DNA of 12,808 nucleotides, taken from a plasmid. Position 1 is the first letter of the stretch; every line of letters begins with the position of its first letter. Positions 1 to 6,000 of the stretch are shown here, one piece after another. Location: the sequence record NZ_CP059482.1. One strand, given 5' to 3'. Position numbers: made by a program.

Positions 1-3000
1 CTTTCTGCTGCCCATTGTTCCTGTTTTTCGCTTTTACTCATGCCCGTTTACCCTCTGAGTTTTAACGGGGGAATTATGCTCATTGATGGCAGTGGAGGTC
101 AAATTCAACTACAATCCCTGATAACTCTTTTATTTATCAGGGCGCACTTAGACGTTTCTTCACTTCGTTCAGAAACGGTGCGCGCCTTCAGCGGGATAAA
201 AACACGATGGCCTCCTATCACCTCAGCGTAAAAACCGGCGGGAAAGGCAGTGCCTCTCCCCATGCCGATTATATTTCGCGTGAGGGAAAGTATGCCCGTG
301 AAAAAGACTCCGACCTTGAGCACAAGGAGTCCGGCAATATGCCTGCCTGGGCAGCGCATAAACCGACGGAGTTCTGGAAAGCCGCTGACACGTTTGAACG
401 TGCCAACGGCTGTACCTACCGTGAAATCGAGATTGCCCTGCCGCGTGAGCTGAAACCCGAACAACGCCTTGAACTGGTCCGCGATTTTGTCCGGCAGGAA
501 ATCGGCGACCGTCATGCGTATCAGTTCGCCATTCATAATCCGAAAGCGGCGATAGCCGGCGGCGAGCAGCCGCACGCGCATATCATGTTCTCTGAGCGGA
601 TGAATGACGGTATCGACCGTGACCCGCAGCAGTATTTTAAGCGAGCTAACAGCAAAGCCCCTGAGCGCGGCGGTGCGAAAAAGGCACGTTTCGGGGAAAC
701 GCCGACAGAACGCAAAGAGCACCTCGTCGCCCAGCGGGAACGCTGGGCTGACCTACAGAATAAGCACCTTGAACGGTATCAGCATACCGACCGCGTTGAT
801 GCACGCTCACTCAAAGCTCAGGGCATTGAGCGTGAGCCTGAGCGGCATCTTGGCGCGGGACAGGTTCAGCGGTTCGATACTGCGCAGTTACAGGCCATCC
901 TTGAGCGCAGGGACGCTGAAAGGCAGGCGGAGCAGTCTCGTGATGAACGTGACAGTGTGATTGACGTGACCACCTCGCTACGGGAAGCCATCAGCGAGCG
1001 GGATAACCTGACGATAAAACAAGAGCAGAAGCCTGAACCTGCGCAGGAAGACACTTCCGGCAGGGTTTTCGATTTTGAGAAAGAGCCGGAGAAGCTGAAC
1101 GCACTGGTCAGTGATGCGCTGAAGGACGTACAGGACGAAATCGACCTTCAGTCCCTTGTGAACGAGACAATGGCGGAGTTTCAGGGGATACATCAGGAAA
1201 TGGAGCGACTGGCAGAAAAACAGCGTCAGCAGGAGAAAGAACAGCAGAGACTCGCCGAACAGACACGACAGAAGCCGGATAAAGGCTGGTCATTTTCACG
1301 ATAGACAGGATTTTTCATGAGCGACGAAATTAAACAAATCGCTGCCCTCATCGGGCATCATCAGGCGCTGGAAAAGCGTGTTACCTCTCTGACTGAGCAG
1401 TTTCAGGACGCCTCAGCACAATTACAGCAGCAGAGTGACACGCTGAGCAGGCTCATTCGTGAGCTGGACAGCGCGTCCGGTAATATGACTGAAACCGTCA
1501 GGCAATCTGTTCATGCCGCGCTCATTCAGGTTGAGAAAGAGCTGAAACAAGCCGGATTAGCACAGCAGAAACCGGCGACAGAAGCGCTTAATCAGGCTAC
1601 CGATACGGCGAAGGCGATGATCCATGAAATGCGACGCGAGATGTCGCGCTATACGTGGAAATCCGCGATTTATCTCGTGCTGACGATATTTTTCGTCATG
1701 GCTGCCTGCGTGACGGCATTTACGTGGTTTATGAATGACGGGTACAGCCAGATTGCTGAAATGCAACGGATGGAAGCGGTCTGGCAGAAGAAAGCCCCGC
1801 TGGCTGATATATCGCGTTGTGACGGAAAGCCCTGCGTTAAGGTGGACACCCGAGCTACGTATGGTGATAAAGAGAATACCTGGATGATTATCAAAAAATA
1901 ACATAACGGCGCACATTGCGCCGTTATTGTTGTCGTGAATTAGGGGGTCAGTTTGGATATAGAGAATTATTGTACTATAAGGACTTCCCCGGCATGTCAA
2001 AGCCGGTATTTATGGTTTCTGTCTGCTCTTCAGTAAAAATAAAGGGGAGAGACTGCGGTACTATAAACGGCCATGATGAATCGTCATCGATTCGGGCCCT
2101 GATGAAAGACGCGCGTGAGGTTCTTGTTCGTTAAGCGGATACGTATATCCTGTACAATAGCCAGATAGGCCTCACGGGGTCTAACCCTTTATCATCAACG
2201 AATTGCAGGTCAGATGGTTATACAGCTTCGAGCTTTAGTTGACTGAGTACAGCCGGAAATCATCACCGTAATGTAGTGATGCCCAACACAGCCGCGCATT
2301 TTTGGCGGCGATGGCCACAACAGCCCGCCAGTACCCTCTGCGCTCAACCAACATACAAACCCAACGGCTGAATGAGTCAGTCCTTTTCCCGGCGCCAATA
2401 AGCACTGAACGAGCCCCCTGAACCAGAAGCGTTCGCAGATACGAATCACCGGCTTTTGTGATCCTGCCGAGTTTCGACTTTCCCCCGCTGCTGTATTGTG
2501 ATGGCGTCAGCCCCAGCCAGGCTGCCAGTTGACGTCCATTTTTAAAATCATGTGCATTACCGATACTGGCGACCAGTGCACAGGCCGTTGTGGGACCAAC
2601 GCCCTTTAGCTCCATCAGCCGCTGACTGCGATGATCTGTTTTGGCTATGTGGGACAAAATTCGGTCATATTCAGTGATGTTAGCTTCAATGCGATCAACG
2701 TGTTCCATCAAATCATCAACACATTGCTGAACCTGAAGCGGTAAAGAGCTCTTCTGCACAGAAACCATGTGGCGCAGGGCATCAGCACTTTGTGGCGCGA
2801 TGACACCGAATTCAGATATCAATCCTCGCAGACGATTATACGTTGCTGTTTTCTCTTCGATAAAACCCTGACGGGTACGATGTAAACACTGCATGGCCTG
2901 CTGGCTTTCGTCTTTCACTGGTACGAACCGCATATGCGGACGACGAACAGCTTCACAGATAGCCTGAGCATCAGCTGCATCATTTTTTCCTGATTTTCCG

Positions 3001-6000
3001 GCCATACGATAAGGCGATACAAACTTAGCAGCCATCAGACGTGGCTCATGACCATACTGCCGAAACAATCTTGCCCAGTAGTGAGCCCCGGAGCATGCTT
3101 CCATCCCGATAACACAGGGAGGCAAACTTGCAATTAACTCAGGAAGTGCAGCACGCGATACTTTAGGCTTAACCAGAACAGTTCTACCATTTTGATCAAC
3201 ACCGTGAACAGCAAACACATTTTTAGCAAGATCGATACCGACAGTCGTGATAGTCATAACGAATTCCTCCGGGACGATGTGTACCCCATGATTGCACAAG
3301 AGTTAATCAGGCGCATAATCAGGGGAAGTCCCTTCCATTCGTTAAGCACATTATTTAACCAATTCGGATACGTAAGTGATTGATTTATCGTCAGTGGCTA
3401 TCGCTTTTAGGTTGTCGCTCTTGCTGTATCGCATTTAGGTTATCCGATTAAGACAAAATCCCCTGAAAACGCTGTATAGCGCGGGAGTACACCCTATTGC
3501 TATAGGTAAGTCTGTTCAAAAAACAGGCTTACCGAATGGAAGGGACTTCCCCTGATTATGCGCCTGATTAACTCTTGTGCAATCATGGGGTACACATCGT
3601 CCCGGAGGAATTCGTTATGACTATCACGACTGTCGGTATCGATCTTGCTAAAAATGTGTTTGCTGTTCACGGTGTTGATCAAAATGGTAGAACTGTTCTG
3701 GTTAAGCCTAAAGTATCGCGTGCTGCACTTCCTGAGTTAATTGCAAGTTTGCCTCCCTGTGTTATCGGGATGGAAGCATGCTCCGGGGCTCACTACTGGG
3801 CAAGATTGTTTCGGCAGTATGGTCATGAGCCACGTCTGATGGCTGCTAAGTTTGTATCGCCTTATCGTATGGCCGGAAAATCAGGAAAAAATGATGCAGC
3901 TGATGCTCAGGCTATCTGTGAAGCTGTTCGTCGTCCGCATATGCGGTTCGTACCAGTGAAAGACGAAAGCCAGCAGGCCATGCAGTGTTTACATCGTACC
4001 CGTCAGGGTTTTATCGAAGAGAAAACAGCAACGTATAATCGTCTGCGAGGATTGATATCTGAATTCGGTGTCATCGCGCCACAAAGTGCTGATGCCCTGC
4101 GCCACATGGTTTCTGTGCAGAAGAGCTCTTTACCGCTTCAGGTTCAGCAATGTGTTGATGATTTGATGGAACACGTTGATCGCATTGAAGCTAACATCAC
4201 TGAATATGACCGAATTTTGTCCCACATAGCCAAAACAGATCATCGCAGTCAGCGGCTGATGGAGCTAAAGGGCGTTGGTCCCACAACGGCCTGTGCACTG
4301 GTCGCCAGTATCGGTAATGCACATGATTTTAAAAATGGACGTCAACTGGCAGCCTGGCTGGGGCTGACGCCATCACAATACAGCAGCGGGGGAAAGTCGA
4401 AACTCGGCAGGATCACAAAAGCCGGTGATTCGTATCTGCGAACGCTTCTGGTTCAGGGGGCTCGTTCAGTGCTTATTGGCGCCGGGAAAAGGACTGACTC
4501 ATTCAGCCGTTGGGTTTGTATGTTGGTTGAGCGCAGAGGGTACTGGCGGGCTGTTGTGGCCATCGCCGCCAAAAATGCGCGGCTGTGTTGGGCATCACTA
4601 CATTACGGTGATGATTTCCGGCTGTACTCAGTCAACTAAAGCTCGAAGCTGTATAACCATCTGACCTGCAATTCGTTGATGATAAAGGGTTAGACCCCGT
4701 GAGGCCTATCTGGCTATTGTACAGGATATACGTATCCGCTTAACGAACAAGAACCTCACGCGCGTCTTTCATCAGGGCCCGAATCGATGACGATTCATCA
4801 TGGCCGTTTATAGTACCGCAGTCTCTCCCCTTTATTTTTACTGAAGAGCAGACAGAAACCATAAATACCGGCTTTGACATGCCGGGGAAGTCCTTATAGT
4901 ACAAAAATTTCCGATCTCCAAACTGACCCCTTGATGGCCGTTTTGTTCTTGCGTGGATGCTGTTTCAAGGTTCTTACCTTGCCGGGGCGCTCGGCGATCA
5001 GCCAGTCCACATCCACCTCGGCCAGCTCCTCGCGCTGTGGCGCCCCTTGGTAGCCGGCATCGGCTGAGACAAATTGCTCCTCTCCATGCAGCAGATTACC
5101 CAGCTGATTGAGGTCATGCTCGTTGGCCGCGGTGGTGACCAGGCTGTGGGTCAGGCCACTCTTGGCATCGACACCAATGTGGGCCTTCATGCCAAAGTGC
5201 CACTGATTGCCTTTCTTGGTCTGATGCATCTCCGGATCGCGTTGCTGCTCTTTGTTCTTGGTCGAGCTGGGTGCCTCAATGATGGTGGCATCGACCAAGG
5301 TGCCTTGAGTCATCATGACGCCTGCTTCGGCCAGCCAGCGATTGATGGTCTTGAACAATTGGCGGGCCAGTTGATGCTGCTCCAGCAGGTGGCGGAAATT
5401 CATGATGGTGGTGCGGTCCGGCAAGGCGCTATCCAGGGATAACCGGGCAAACAGACGCATGGAGGCGATTTCGTACAGAGCATCTTCCATCGCGCCATCG
5501 CTCAGGTTGTACCAATGCTGCATGCAGTGAATGCGTAGCATGGTCTCCAGCGGATAGGGCCGTCGGCCATTGCCCGCCTTGGGATAAAACGGCTCGATGA
5601 CAGCGGTCATATTCTGCCATGGCAGAATCTGCTCCATGCGGGAGAGGAAAATCTCTTTTCGGGTCTGACGGCGCTTAGTGCTGAATTCACTATCGGCGAA
5701 GGTGAGTTGATGGCTCATGATGTCCCTCTGGGATGCGCTCCGGATGAACATGATGATCTCATATCAGGAACTTGTTCGCACCTTCCCTGTCTATCGCACA
5801 TTTTTGCAAATCCCGTCGATTATTTATTTCCATATGAAACTGAAATCCGTAGCATAGTTTGACGAAAAGAACAGGCCATCAGGATGAAAATGGCCCGGGT
5901 AACAAGCCACCACCTGAAACGGATGTCAGCCTCTAGGAGCTGTAACCTAAGGGCGGTAGCGTGCCTGCGTCAGGCCACTTGTTCTGAAAAACCGAGCGTC

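Follow-up and report, generated by a model that had tools for sequence, protein, structure and literature searches.

Two ISCfr26 insertions in the terminal repeats of a resident MITESen1 on an mcr-4.3 plasmid, probably made in place under RNA guidance

We found that a miniature element, MITESen1, carries an identical ISCfr26 copy in each of its terminal repeats, and this structure very probably arose by two in-situ, seekRNA-guided insertions of ISCfr26 into the resident MITESen1, followed by inversion of the centre. The window (the whole 12,808-nt stretch that was analysed) is a 12.8-kb ColE10-type mobilisable plasmid carrying mcr-4.3 (colistin resistance). Here, the resident MITESen1 beside mobX would have taken two separate ISCfr26 insertions, one per 38-bp terminal repeat. 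The centre would have inverted after the insertions, most simply by homologous recombination between the IS copies, which would have left each outer half of an inverted repeat (IR) facing the inner 6-mer of the other repeat. We infer both how the events followed one another and by which pathway recombination took place.

Anatomy of the two-IS unit

The unit totals 2,987 bp and contains two identical 1365-bp insertion sequences, at 1976-3340 (minus strand) and 3534-4898 (plus strand), which form perfect inverted arms of 1.37 kb. A mirror comparison of 1970-3341 with 3533-4904 gave 0 mismatches, confirming the earlier note's description of two identical, mirror-symmetric IS copies that read outward; a repeat search returned arms at 1939-3361 and 3513-4935 with 99% complementarity. 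Each IS splits one 38-bp Tn3-type IR at 32/6 (the slash marks the junction), and both transposase genes point outward. The observation that both IRs are split alike, 6 bp from the TAAG end, was thus correct. The outer IR pieces (1944-1975 and 4899-4930) differ at 5 positions, and the inner pieces, GTTAAG (3341-3346) and CTTACC (3528-3533), at one. The centre measures 193 bp, or 181 bp without both 6-mers. The features are as follows.

1944-1975, plus strand: outer 32 bp of IR-B of MITESen1 (GGGGTCAGTTTGGATATAGAGAATTATTGTAC); adjoins the mobX backbone flank and equals the IR-B end of ISfinder MITESen1 and of uninterrupted copies
1976-3340, minus strand: ISCfr26 copy 1, 1365 bp, identical to copy 2; transposase CDS 2235-3257 (minus strand)
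2114-2176, minus strand: predicted seekRNA target-binding module of copy 1, mirror of 4698-4760
3341-3346, plus strand: GTTAAG, inner 6 bp native to IR-A, here facing the IR-B outer half
3347-3527, no strand assigned: MITESen1 non-coding core, 181 bp, inverted relative to every uninterrupted copy
3528-3533, minus strand: CTTACC (reverse complement GGTAAG), inner 6 bp native to IR-B, here facing the IR-A outer half
3534-4898, plus strand: ISCfr26 copy 2; transposase CDS 3617-4639, non-coding region 4640-4898
3534-3552: left end of copy 2, with the 7-bp extension GAATGGA (3534-3540) and a subterminal repeat (3541-3552), as read from the sequence
4698-4760, plus strand: predicted seekRNA target-binding module of copy 2; guides and target covary across L016, IS5708 and IS4321
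4884-4898: right end of copy 2, with a subterminal repeat (4884-4895) and the 3-bp extension ATA (4896-4898), read in the same way
4899-4930, minus strand: outer 32 bp of IR-A of MITESen1 (GGGGTCAGTTTGGAGATCGGAAATTTTTGTAC, minus strand)
4931-5786, minus strand: truncated IS5/ISKpn26-like element (context), abutting IR-A; same junction in the IS-free plasmid pEn_MCR4

The IS boundaries are supported independently by the 12-bp subterminal repeats, which lie 7 bp and 3 bp in from the IS ends, by in-silico excision, which restores an element found uninterrupted elsewhere, and by identical junctions at 14 other genomic insertions. They are ambiguous by 1 nt, because the IS left end and the right flank both carry a G.

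Perfect inverted arms of 1.37 kb are the classic signature of an assembly artefact, and a wrong join in the assembly graph, or a read that was chimeric or a hairpin, could mean that only one ISCfr26 copy is real, or that none is present at one end. However, the arms stop exactly at the IS boundaries, within two different IR halves (the 5 outer and 1 inner differences), and enclose the unique, non-palindromic MITESen1 core. The same architecture recurs in an E. kobei plasmid of the same type, assembled independently, and in 8 other plasmids with different flanks. A single real IS copy appears very unlikely in the light of these comparisons.

The insertion sequence is ISCfr26

Protein-level comparison identifies the IS as ISCfr26, a member of the IS1111 family in its IS5708/IS1618 group. 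At 340/340 positions, the transposase matches the ISCfr26 protein given in supplement file 6 of Siddiquee et al. 2024, leaving no difference from ISCfr26 at the protein level. Both Pfam domains, DEDD_Tnp_IS110 (PF01548) and Transposase_20 (PF02371), scored above their cut-offs. The earlier view of an IS110/IS1111-type element inserted in one orientation is supported. The group of ISCfr26, IS5708, IS1618, ISEc76, ISSm1 and ISLad6 has 86-95% transposase identity (PMC11187229, supplement file 7 matrix), and the relatives agree in their ends and in their IR register. More than 140 plasmid records held ISCfr26 matches with at least 99% identity, and the best 25 of those listed are full-length and 100% identical.

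The ends have the organisation expected of the IS1111 family, whose rule places 11-13-bp inverted repeats subterminally, 7 bp in from the left terminus and 3 bp in from the right (PMC11187229). The subterminal repeats AGGGACTTCCCC (3541-3552) and GGGGAAGTCCTT (4884-4895) pair at 11/12, and the terminal extensions are GAATGGA (7 bp, left) and ATA (3 bp, right), as the rule requires. The non-coding sequence is 259 nt long downstream of the transposase gene versus 83 nt upstream; a long downstream non-coding region is part of the IS1111 description (PMC11187229). Furthermore, IS excision in silico rebuilds the empty element exactly, indicating site-specific insertion without target duplication.

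The earlier assignment to IS4321/IS5075 was rejected. The transposases of the IS and of IS4321 are only 37% identical, against 340/340 for ISCfr26, and no IS4321- or IS5075-annotated element is among the 40 matches listed in a DNA search. The junction does not match that of IS4321 either, since IS4321 in R751 cuts its IR at 22/16 and ISCfr26 cuts at 32/6. IS4321 and IS5075, reportedly described by Partridge & Hall in 2003 as 1327 bp long and ~93% identical to each other, also differ in length from ISCfr26 (1365 bp), and they hit Tn21-like IRs, whereas ISCfr26 hits a Tn3/MITESen1-like subgroup. The behaviour is analogous, although lineage and insertion register differ: in both cases an IS1111-family element sits at one fixed position in a 38-bp Tn3-family IR, in a single orientation that points the transposase gene away from the transposon, and inserts without duplication. 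IS4321 also shares the guide architecture (T guide, hairpin, B guide).

The host element is a variant of MITESen1

The 257-bp transposase-less element matches the already named MITESen1, as a 93% variant. The IS-free reconstruct was 239/258 identical to the ISfinder MITESen1 sequence (Gomi & Yano 2026, Table S2, PMC13367494) once the centre was flipped. With its centre flipped, the reconstruct also equals, at 257/257, the uninterrupted copies of 5 plasmids: Pantoea pPSP-ee2, pEn_MCR4 and three more. Both Tn3-family 38-bp terminal repeats (GGGG...TAAG) are rebuilt after IS removal and match the MITESen1 reference IRs at every base. The length of 257 bp is inside the 50-500 bp TIME range. There is no transposase or resolvase gene, and the only ORFs in the 181-bp core are mechanical ones crossing junctions. 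The recognition of a transposase-less Tn3-type miniature element was therefore well founded. Like the reference, the element is plasmid-borne in Enterobacterales; unlike it, the copy in the window has ISCfr26 in both IRs, an inverted centre and no 5-bp direct repeats.

A 5-bp target-site duplication is absent here, the flanks being ATTAG and TTGAT, and direct repeats were found around 0/7 uninterrupted and 0/8 loaded MITESen1 copies examined. In the literature, 5-bp repeats occur only around some MITESen1-bounded composites. MITESen1 and split IRs are routinely missed in the annotation of mcr-4 and other resistance plasmids.

A predicted seekRNA module would account for the target site

We infer that the targeting would be explained by a predicted seekRNA module downstream of the transposase gene. 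The site would be chosen via a seekRNA from the 259-nt non-coding region, and not by protein recognition of the repeat. In the predicted module, the stem CGTGAGG (4698-4704) pairs with CCTCACG (4754-4760) and encloses a T guide, TATTGTAC, at 4715-4722, a hairpin at 4724-4737 and a B guide, GCTTAACG, at 4738-4745. In silico, the guides lie T then B around the hairpin within a conserved stem, and this order is that reported for IS1111 seekRNAs.

The RNA would form a stem-enclosed loop with the two guides on either side of the small hairpin. The first guide, UAUUGUAC, would be complementary to the target top strand, GTACAATA, and the second, GCUUAACG, to the bottom strand of GCTTAAC/G. Both together would specify ...CTTAAC/GTACAAT..., which is position 32/6 of many Tn3-family IRs. 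Because the guides specify the junction, orientation would be fixed, with the IS left end turned towards the interior of the transposon and the transposase gene pointing outward. ISCfr26 insertion would be conservative, without target duplication.

At 14 loci from other genera, the target is always CTTAAC/IS/GTACAAT...CTGACCCC, in one orientation. The guides covary with the target in natural relatives: an 89% relative in Erwinia oleae has the target CTTAGC/GTACGTTTT and carries AAAACGTAC and CTTAGCG, and IS5708 has the target .../GTAGGATA and carries TATCCTAC. As a positive control, AAAACGGAAA and TATTTTC of IS4321 in R751 match its own 22/16 site. One base of each MITESen1 IR fails to match a guide. 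A shuffle test of the two 8-mers alone (25/5000 shuffles) was moderately strong only, and the fold of the whole non-coding region was marginally better than shuffles (z = -1.76). We placed the weight on guide-target covariation, which covers four lineages only. ISCfr26 shares the long downstream non-coding region, the DEDD transposase and the 7-bp/3-bp extensions with the seekRNA/bridge-RNA IS1111/IS110 elements (Siddiquee et al. 2024, PMC11187229; Durrant et al. 2024, PMC11208160). The experiments of Siddiquee et al. covered elements other than ISCfr26, whose RNA is predicted here.

The insertions probably occurred in place

The plasmid pEn_MCR4 (MH061380), an mcr-4.3 plasmid that is otherwise isogenic, provides the empty site. 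It has an intact MITESen1 between the same mobX and truncated-IS5 flanks, and since these flanks surround an empty element, the two insertions appear to have happened in place.

Alternatively, the 2.99-kb unit could have come whole, either as an IS-bounded composite transposon or as a MITESen1 already loaded with the IS copies and mobilised by a Tn3-family transposase. Such an arrival would fit the presence of double-occupied units in 9 different contexts, in each of which the two IS copies are identical, and the retention of 36/38 IR bases by the hybrid ends. However, filling in situ is indicated by pEn_MCR4, in which both flanks are the same and MITESen1 is empty, and by Pantoea pPSP-ee2, which has the same mobX-side flank. 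Moreover, no 5-bp duplication surrounds any loaded copy, and IS1111 elements travel as single circles, which insert at sites matching their guides. We consider whole-unit arrival highly improbable.

The centre is flipped in the window

The 193-bp centre lies in the opposite orientation to that of every uninterrupted MITESen1 copy, so the two IRs reconstructed in the earlier note are chimeras of IR-A and IR-B halves; the pieces are as quoted there, but outer and inner halves were mispaired. Native pairing was found in the near-identical E. kobei plasmid L001 and in 7 of the 8 other double-occupied copies, the orientation of the eighth (L021) being ambiguous. The flip was seen in the window only, one of nine resolvable double-occupied structures. 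The suggestion that the unit can invert is supported.

The flipped centre may be genuine, through inversion between the IS copies, or an arbitrary choice by the assembler. If it were the latter, both IS copies would be real and the true plasmid would have the native arrangement, with no inversion. This reading agrees with the lack of a flip in every other double-occupied copy (eight native, including the nearest relative L001, besides the ambiguous L021), and the repeat exceeds short-read inserts, so the centre is not orientable from short reads alone. Yet inverted repeats of 1.37 kb are expected to undergo homologous inversion in recA+ hosts, the sequence holds nothing contrary to a real inversion, and recent plasmid assemblies are often long-read or hybrid. 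We regard an assembler's choice as conceivable, though somewhat unlikely.

A real inversion could also have come about without RecA-dependent recombination, if the DEDD recombinase of ISCfr26, which is related to Piv, acted on the two IS-end junctions in their inverted arrangement. From bridge-RNA work, these recombinases are said to be able to carry out programmed inversions. Piv, a site-specific invertase, has been described as a relative of these transposases (PMC11187229). Against this, the products would be indistinguishable in sequence from those of homologous recombination, normal excision joins a left end and a right end, not two left ends, and a flip in only 1/9 resolvable structures fits a rare event. 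Inversion by the recombinase seems unlikely, and homologous recombination between the IS copies would be the simplest pathway.

Implications for MITESen1 and ISCfr26

Double occupancy was found in 9 of ~1,500 MITESen1-bearing plasmid records. The earlier view that a hit at both ends is unusual holds in that it is uncommon, but it is also recurrent, and 'Tn4321' in R751, in which both IRs of a transposase-less element are occupied, is a precedent. 'Tn4321' was first read as a composite transposon bounded by two IS copies.

MITESen1, ISCfr26, the IS1111-family "IR hunters" and seekRNA guidance were known already, and this is not a new kind of system. What is added is a second IS1111 lineage hitting Tn3-family IRs, in the register 32/6 versus 22/16 for IS4321 in R751, and a guide-target covariation in natural relatives that supports RNA-guided choice of the 32/6 site. 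The mcr-4.3 plasmids also give a clean before/after pair, and the palindromic unit can exist with a flipped centre. Because of the 1.37-kb inverted arms, the orientation of the centre is unreliable in short-read assemblies.

In place of the IR's own G(G/T)TAAG, the IS right end contributes TATAAG; the conserved TAAG is thereby kept, and each hybrid end agrees with the native IR at 36/38 positions. Loss of mobility in trans, as previously proposed, is unproven because of these retained bases. There is a small chance that ISCfr26 does not disable the MITESen1 ends and that the 3-kb loaded element could still move by a Tn3-family transposase. If so, ISCfr26-group elements would ride TIMEs and Tn3-family transposons as vehicles without killing them, which would help to explain doubly loaded units with identical IS copies in nine plasmid contexts. 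The usability of IS-loaded IRs thus bears on the further movement of these resistance regions.

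Structure of the doubly occupied element

We compared the window base by base with its mirror and found 0 mismatches between 1970-3341 and 3533-4904. A repeat search placed the inverted arms at 1939-3361 and 3513-4935 (99%).

Features of the doubly occupied MITESen1
1944-1975: outer IR piece GGGGTCAGTTTGGATATAGAGAATTATTGTAC, outside IS copy 1
1976-3340 (-): ISCfr26 copy 1, 1365 bp, identical to copy 2
2235-3257 (-): 340-aa transposase ORF of copy 1
3341-3346: inner 6-mer GTTAAG, inside the IS copies
3528-3533: inner 6-mer CTTACC, inside the IS copies
3534-4898 (+): ISCfr26 copy 2, 1365 bp, identical to copy 1
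3541-3552: left subterminal inverted repeat of copy 2, AGGGACTTCCCC, 7 bp (GAATGGA) from the IS end
3617-4639 (+): 340-aa transposase ORF of copy 2
4884-4895: right subterminal inverted repeat of copy 2, GGGGAAGTCCTT, 3 bp (ATA) from the IS end
4930-4899 (-): outer IR piece GGGGTCAGTTTGGAGATCGGAAATTTTTGTAC, outside IS copy 2

The MITESen1 core between the inner 6-mers GTTAAG and CTTACC is 181 bp long, and the 340-aa ORF contains DEDD_Tnp_IS110 and Transposase_20 domains (Pfam). Terminal extensions of 7 bp and 3 bp outside the subterminal repeats are the rule in the IS1111 family (Siddiquee et al. 2024, PMC11187229). Since the spacing found here fits this rule, the IS boundaries do not depend on the repeat alone. 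Because the IS left end and the right flank have a G in common, the junction can be placed in two ways, one base apart. The earlier note had described two identical, mirror-symmetric IS copies splitting both inverted repeats (IRs), which is borne out by the perfect mirror and the expected spacing of the subterminal repeats. This observation is correct and careful, and the structure is made of known parts via known mechanisms. An imperfect palindrome with 12-bp arms (GGTAAGTCTGTTC-AAAAAA-CAGGCTTACC, 3505-3533) lies in the core and includes the inner end of IR-B, the mobX-side IR.

The concern that the inverted IS duplication is an assembly artefact had also been raised, but this is very unlikely: the arms break off at the IS ends, in IR halves that differ from each other, they enclose a known sequence that is unique, and separate assemblies agree on the structure. 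Cruciform extrusion and attack by SbcCD had been suggested as well; the persistence of the doubly loaded structure in at least 10 assemblies argues that it is tolerated.

The IS is ISCfr26

The IS had been taken for an IS5075/IS4321-like element, an assignment that does not hold. Its transposase matches the ISCfr26 protein at 340/340 residues (sequence from Siddiquee et al. 2024, supplement file 6), against 36.8% identity to the IS4321 protein. In the identity matrix of that study (PMC11187229), ISCfr26 is grouped with IS5708, ISEc76, ISSm1, IS1618 and ISLad6 at 86-95%. Among the 40 DNA matches listed, the annotated relatives were IS1618 (90%) and IS5708 (78%), and no element was annotated as IS4321 or IS5075. 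Matches of at least 99% identity to the IS occur in more than 140 plasmid records, and the 25 best plasmid matches listed are all 100% identical and full-length. In the 7,304-bp plasmid of Citrobacter sp. CFNIH10 (NZ_CP026215.1, 3067-4849), the IS match consists of two joined pieces spanning 1.78 kb, an arrangement that points to partial duplication or rearrangement of an ISCfr26 copy.

Resident MITESen1 and its empty site

We joined 1944-1975, 3341-3533 and 4899-4930 into a 257-bp reconstruct and searched 72,556 plasmid records by blastn, finding an uninterrupted match (at least 80% coverage) in 1,403 records. The best full-length matches of the reconstruct as read were all 96.1% identical. 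The outer IR halves differ from each other at five positions, and these, counted twice, account for the 10 mismatches. With the 193-bp centre flipped, the reconstruct was identical (257/257) to copies in Pantoea pPSP-ee2 and pEn_MCR4 and in plasmids of E. coli, C. freundii and K. pneumoniae. It was 239/258 identical to the ISfinder MITESen1 sequence as given by Gomi & Yano 2026 (Table S2; PMC13367494). Native IR-B reads ...ATTATTGTAC-GGTAAG, and native IR-A (the IS5-side end) reads ...TTTTTGTAC-GTTAAG. The proposal of a transposase-less Tn3-type miniature element (TIME) stands, and removal of the IS copies did lead to the uninterrupted element once the centre was flipped. But this element was already named MITESen1, and both IRs written in the earlier note are chimeras with swapped inner 6-mers.

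The mcr-4.3 plasmid pEn_MCR4 (MH061380) carries an intact native MITESen1 with the same flanks as the window, CTAATTCACG on the mobX side and the truncated-IS5 flank TTGATGGCCG on the other; the mobX-side junction is present too in Pantoea pPSP-ee2. This isogenic empty site shows that both IS copies inserted in place into a resident MITESen1. A composite-transposon reading of the unit was rejected, since pEn_MCR4 shows in-situ filling.

In the window, the outer half of IR-B faces the inner 6-mer of IR-A, and vice versa at the other end, an arrangement that it alone has among the double-occupied copies. The pairing is native in the near-identical E. kobei plasmid (L001) and in the compared records L004, L022, L023 and L031-L034, and ambiguous in L021 (NZ_CP056138). 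This last record has IR-B-type outer halves at both ends of its double-occupied MITESen1, and could be a variant element or a product of gene conversion or recombination. No uninterrupted copy in the window arrangement was found above 96.1% by blastn of 72,556 plasmid records, indicating that the arrangement arose after IS insertion. The orientation of the centre may be an assembly choice, since short reads do not reveal which way round the 193-bp centre lies when perfect inverted repeats of 1.37 kb enclose it, although we consider this rather unlikely. Inversion catalysed by the Piv-related IS recombinase is an unlikely alternative. The simplest route would be inversion of the centre through homologous recombination between the 1.37-kb inverted IS copies.

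The earlier note held that the insertions kill any mobility of the TIME in trans, a claim that goes beyond the sequence evidence: after insertion, each end consists of the outer 32 bp plus TATAAG, matches the native IR at 36/38 positions and keeps TAAG. No 5-bp target duplication was found around 7 empty copies (L003, L025-L030) or 8 loaded copies (L004, L021-L023, L031-L034). Thus, footprints cannot separate in-situ filling from en-bloc movement and give no answer on the mobility of loaded ends. The IR-B-side flank is recurrent (e.g. TACACGCTCG in L022, L025, L027, L028 and L031) and the IR-A-side flank is variable; it looks as if flanks were exchanged at or beside MITESen1.

Target site and register

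A scan for the IS left end in one genome per species gave 14 loci, in Scandinavium, Erwinia, Pantoea, Pseudescherichia, Kluyvera, Klebsiella, Citrobacter, Yersinia pestis and Pseudomonas. The sequence ...CTTAAC directly abuts the IS left end at 14/14 loci, and the right end, where present, abuts GTACAAT(A/T)ATTT...CAAACTGACCCC. The target at these loci is a Tn3-family IR split into 32 outer and 6 inner bp (32|6), with constant orientation and differing DNA inside the IR. A further example is in pBK31551 (NC_019888, 6001-10344), where ISCfr26 lies inside the IR at the 3' end of a Tn3-family tnpA gene. The annotated tnpA ORF continues into ISCfr26, so the TnpA C-terminus is altered; this site adjoins formaldehyde-detoxification genes, with Tn4401 nearby.

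We re-derived the IS4321 junctions from the R751 sequence and found a Tn21-type IR split GGGGTCGTCTCAGAAAACGGAA|AATAAAGCACGCTAAG, that is 22|16. IS4321 shares the outward orientation of ISCfr26 but splits its IR at 22|16 instead of 32|6. R751 also contains a small transposase-less element with both IRs filled by IS4321 copies in inverted orientation. The suggested IR targeting in the manner of IS4321/IS5075 therefore holds for the single outward orientation, but not for the register. In the literature on ISCfr26, IS5708/IS1618 and MITESen1, we found no account of these IS inside MITESen1 or of 32|6.

Predicted seekRNA guides

No Rfam match was obtained at the gathering threshold across the whole window, so no curated family covers the predicted seekRNA. 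The region downstream of the transposase gene is 259 nt long, and its predicted fold is a stem enclosing a loop.

Features of the predicted seekRNA fold
4698-4704 / 4754-4760: enclosing stem, CGUGAGG pairs with CCUCACG
4715-4722: first guide UAUUGUAC, 5' loop strand, complementary to GTACAATA on the top strand of the target, immediately to the right of the insertion site
4724-4737: central loop hairpin
4738-4745: second guide GCUUAACG, 3' loop strand, equal to top strand GCTTAAC|G, so complementary to the bottom strand

The second guide overlaps the first at the junction. A top-strand guide followed by an overlapping bottom-strand guide has been reported for IS1111 seekRNAs, and the predicted ISCfr26 seekRNA shares this order. 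We compared the non-coding regions of ISCfr26 and its relatives by MAFFT alignment. An 89% relative in Erwinia oleae, located in a different IR (CTTAGC|GTACGTTTT), has the guide segments AAAACGUAC and CUUAGCG; the Erwinia-type counterparts of UAUUGUAC and GCUUAACG are AAAACGUAC and GCUUAGCG. IS5708, located in ...|GTAGGATA, carries at the equivalent guide position UAUCCUAC, which fits this target. The positive control IS4321 has AAAACGGAAA, a hairpin and then UAUUUUC, which fits its own 22|16 site. Across four sequences, the enclosing stem and the hairpin each contain one compensatory pair. In this small sample, natural guide-target covariation is the strongest support for a putative RNA-guided site choice. 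The two 8-mer guides alone recur in 25/5000 mononucleotide shuffles, and the predicted fold of the 259-nt region is only slightly more stable than that of shuffled sequence (z = -1.76).

Each MITESen1 IR has one guide mismatch (position +7 in IR-A, position -2 in IR-B), and despite this the two are used about equally (65 vs 61 plasmid records). The 9-mer TTATAGTAC at 4808-4816 (mirror 2058-2066) in the non-coding region has the same sequence as the junction of IS right end and flank (4894-4902), and may be a candidate second guide for excision. We also looked for a guide that would match the circle junction, and apart from this 9-mer the non-coding region yielded only a 6-mer.

Frequency of double occupancy

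Occupancy of MITESen1 in PLSDB
Uninterrupted MITESen1-like copy: ~1,403 records
IS of the ISCfr26 group next to the core, on its IR-B-inner side: 61 records
IS of the ISCfr26 group next to the core, on its IR-A-inner side: 65 records
IS on both sides of the core: 9 records

If the ends were independent, ~2-3 double-occupied records would be expected, and the observed 9 represent a roughly threefold enrichment. This is unsurprising, because IS are not equally active in all hosts and the records are interrelated. We read 8/9 double-occupied records directly; the E. kobei record, too noisy for the end search, was compared by BLAST. ISCfr26 is carried by four of the nine (three K. michiganensis or E. 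cloacae plasmids and the E. kobei plasmid), and an 87% variant IS of 1367 bp by the other five. The two IS copies are identical within each of the 8/8 directly read records, and the flanks vary among records. Occupation of both ends, which the earlier note considered unusual, is indeed rare beside the uninterrupted copies, but it is recurrent and has a precedent in the IS4321 pair of R751.

In related Col(VCM04)/MOBH megaplasmids, the same MITESen1 site has both ends filled by ISCfr26 in L022 (NZ_CP104841) and by the 1367-bp, 87% variant in L031 (NZ_CP102104). In L024 (NZ_CP084846, 1032-4440), IS5708 occupies the two IRs of another Tn3-type mini element, which is ~750 bp long and contains a hypothetical ORF. 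About ten IS5708-group records have IS copies on both sides.

The plasmid and its close relatives

The window appears to be an entire circular ColE10/MOBQ mobilisable plasmid with mcr-4.3. The mcr-4.3 gene is located at 7611-9236, with V179G and V236F relative to MCR-4.1 of pMCR_R3445. The nearest record, E. kobei pRIVM_C014549_3 (12,786 bp), is co-linear with the window across the window ends; both IS copies are present there too, in a noisy assembly. A truncated IS5/ISKpn26-like element (4931-5786) abuts IR-A, and IS26 (820 bp) is located at 6449-7268. A stretch of ~1.67 kb (5787-7455) is missing from pEn_MCR4, and a similar one from pMCR_R3445; a tyrosine-recombinase fragment is annotated in the equivalent region of the E. 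kobei record.

The original mcr-4 plasmid pMCR_R3445 (MF543359) retains only the non-coding (seekRNA) end of ISCfr26, adjoining IR-B (window 1976-2238), with ISKpn26 inserted at TTAG, exactly at the ISCfr26 transposase stop codon. The rest of this IS, the core of MITESen1, the other IS copy and IR-A are all missing there, as though a structure like that in the window had undergone a deletion. The mcr-4 discovery paper and one mcr review name IS5 only, with nothing on the MITESen1/ISCfr26 structure.

The new information from this locus is modest: guide-target covariation, a before/after plasmid pair and an inverted centre in the window sequence. To these it adds the ISCfr26/IS5708/IS1618 lineage as a second set of Tn3-IR hunters, which act at register 32|6.
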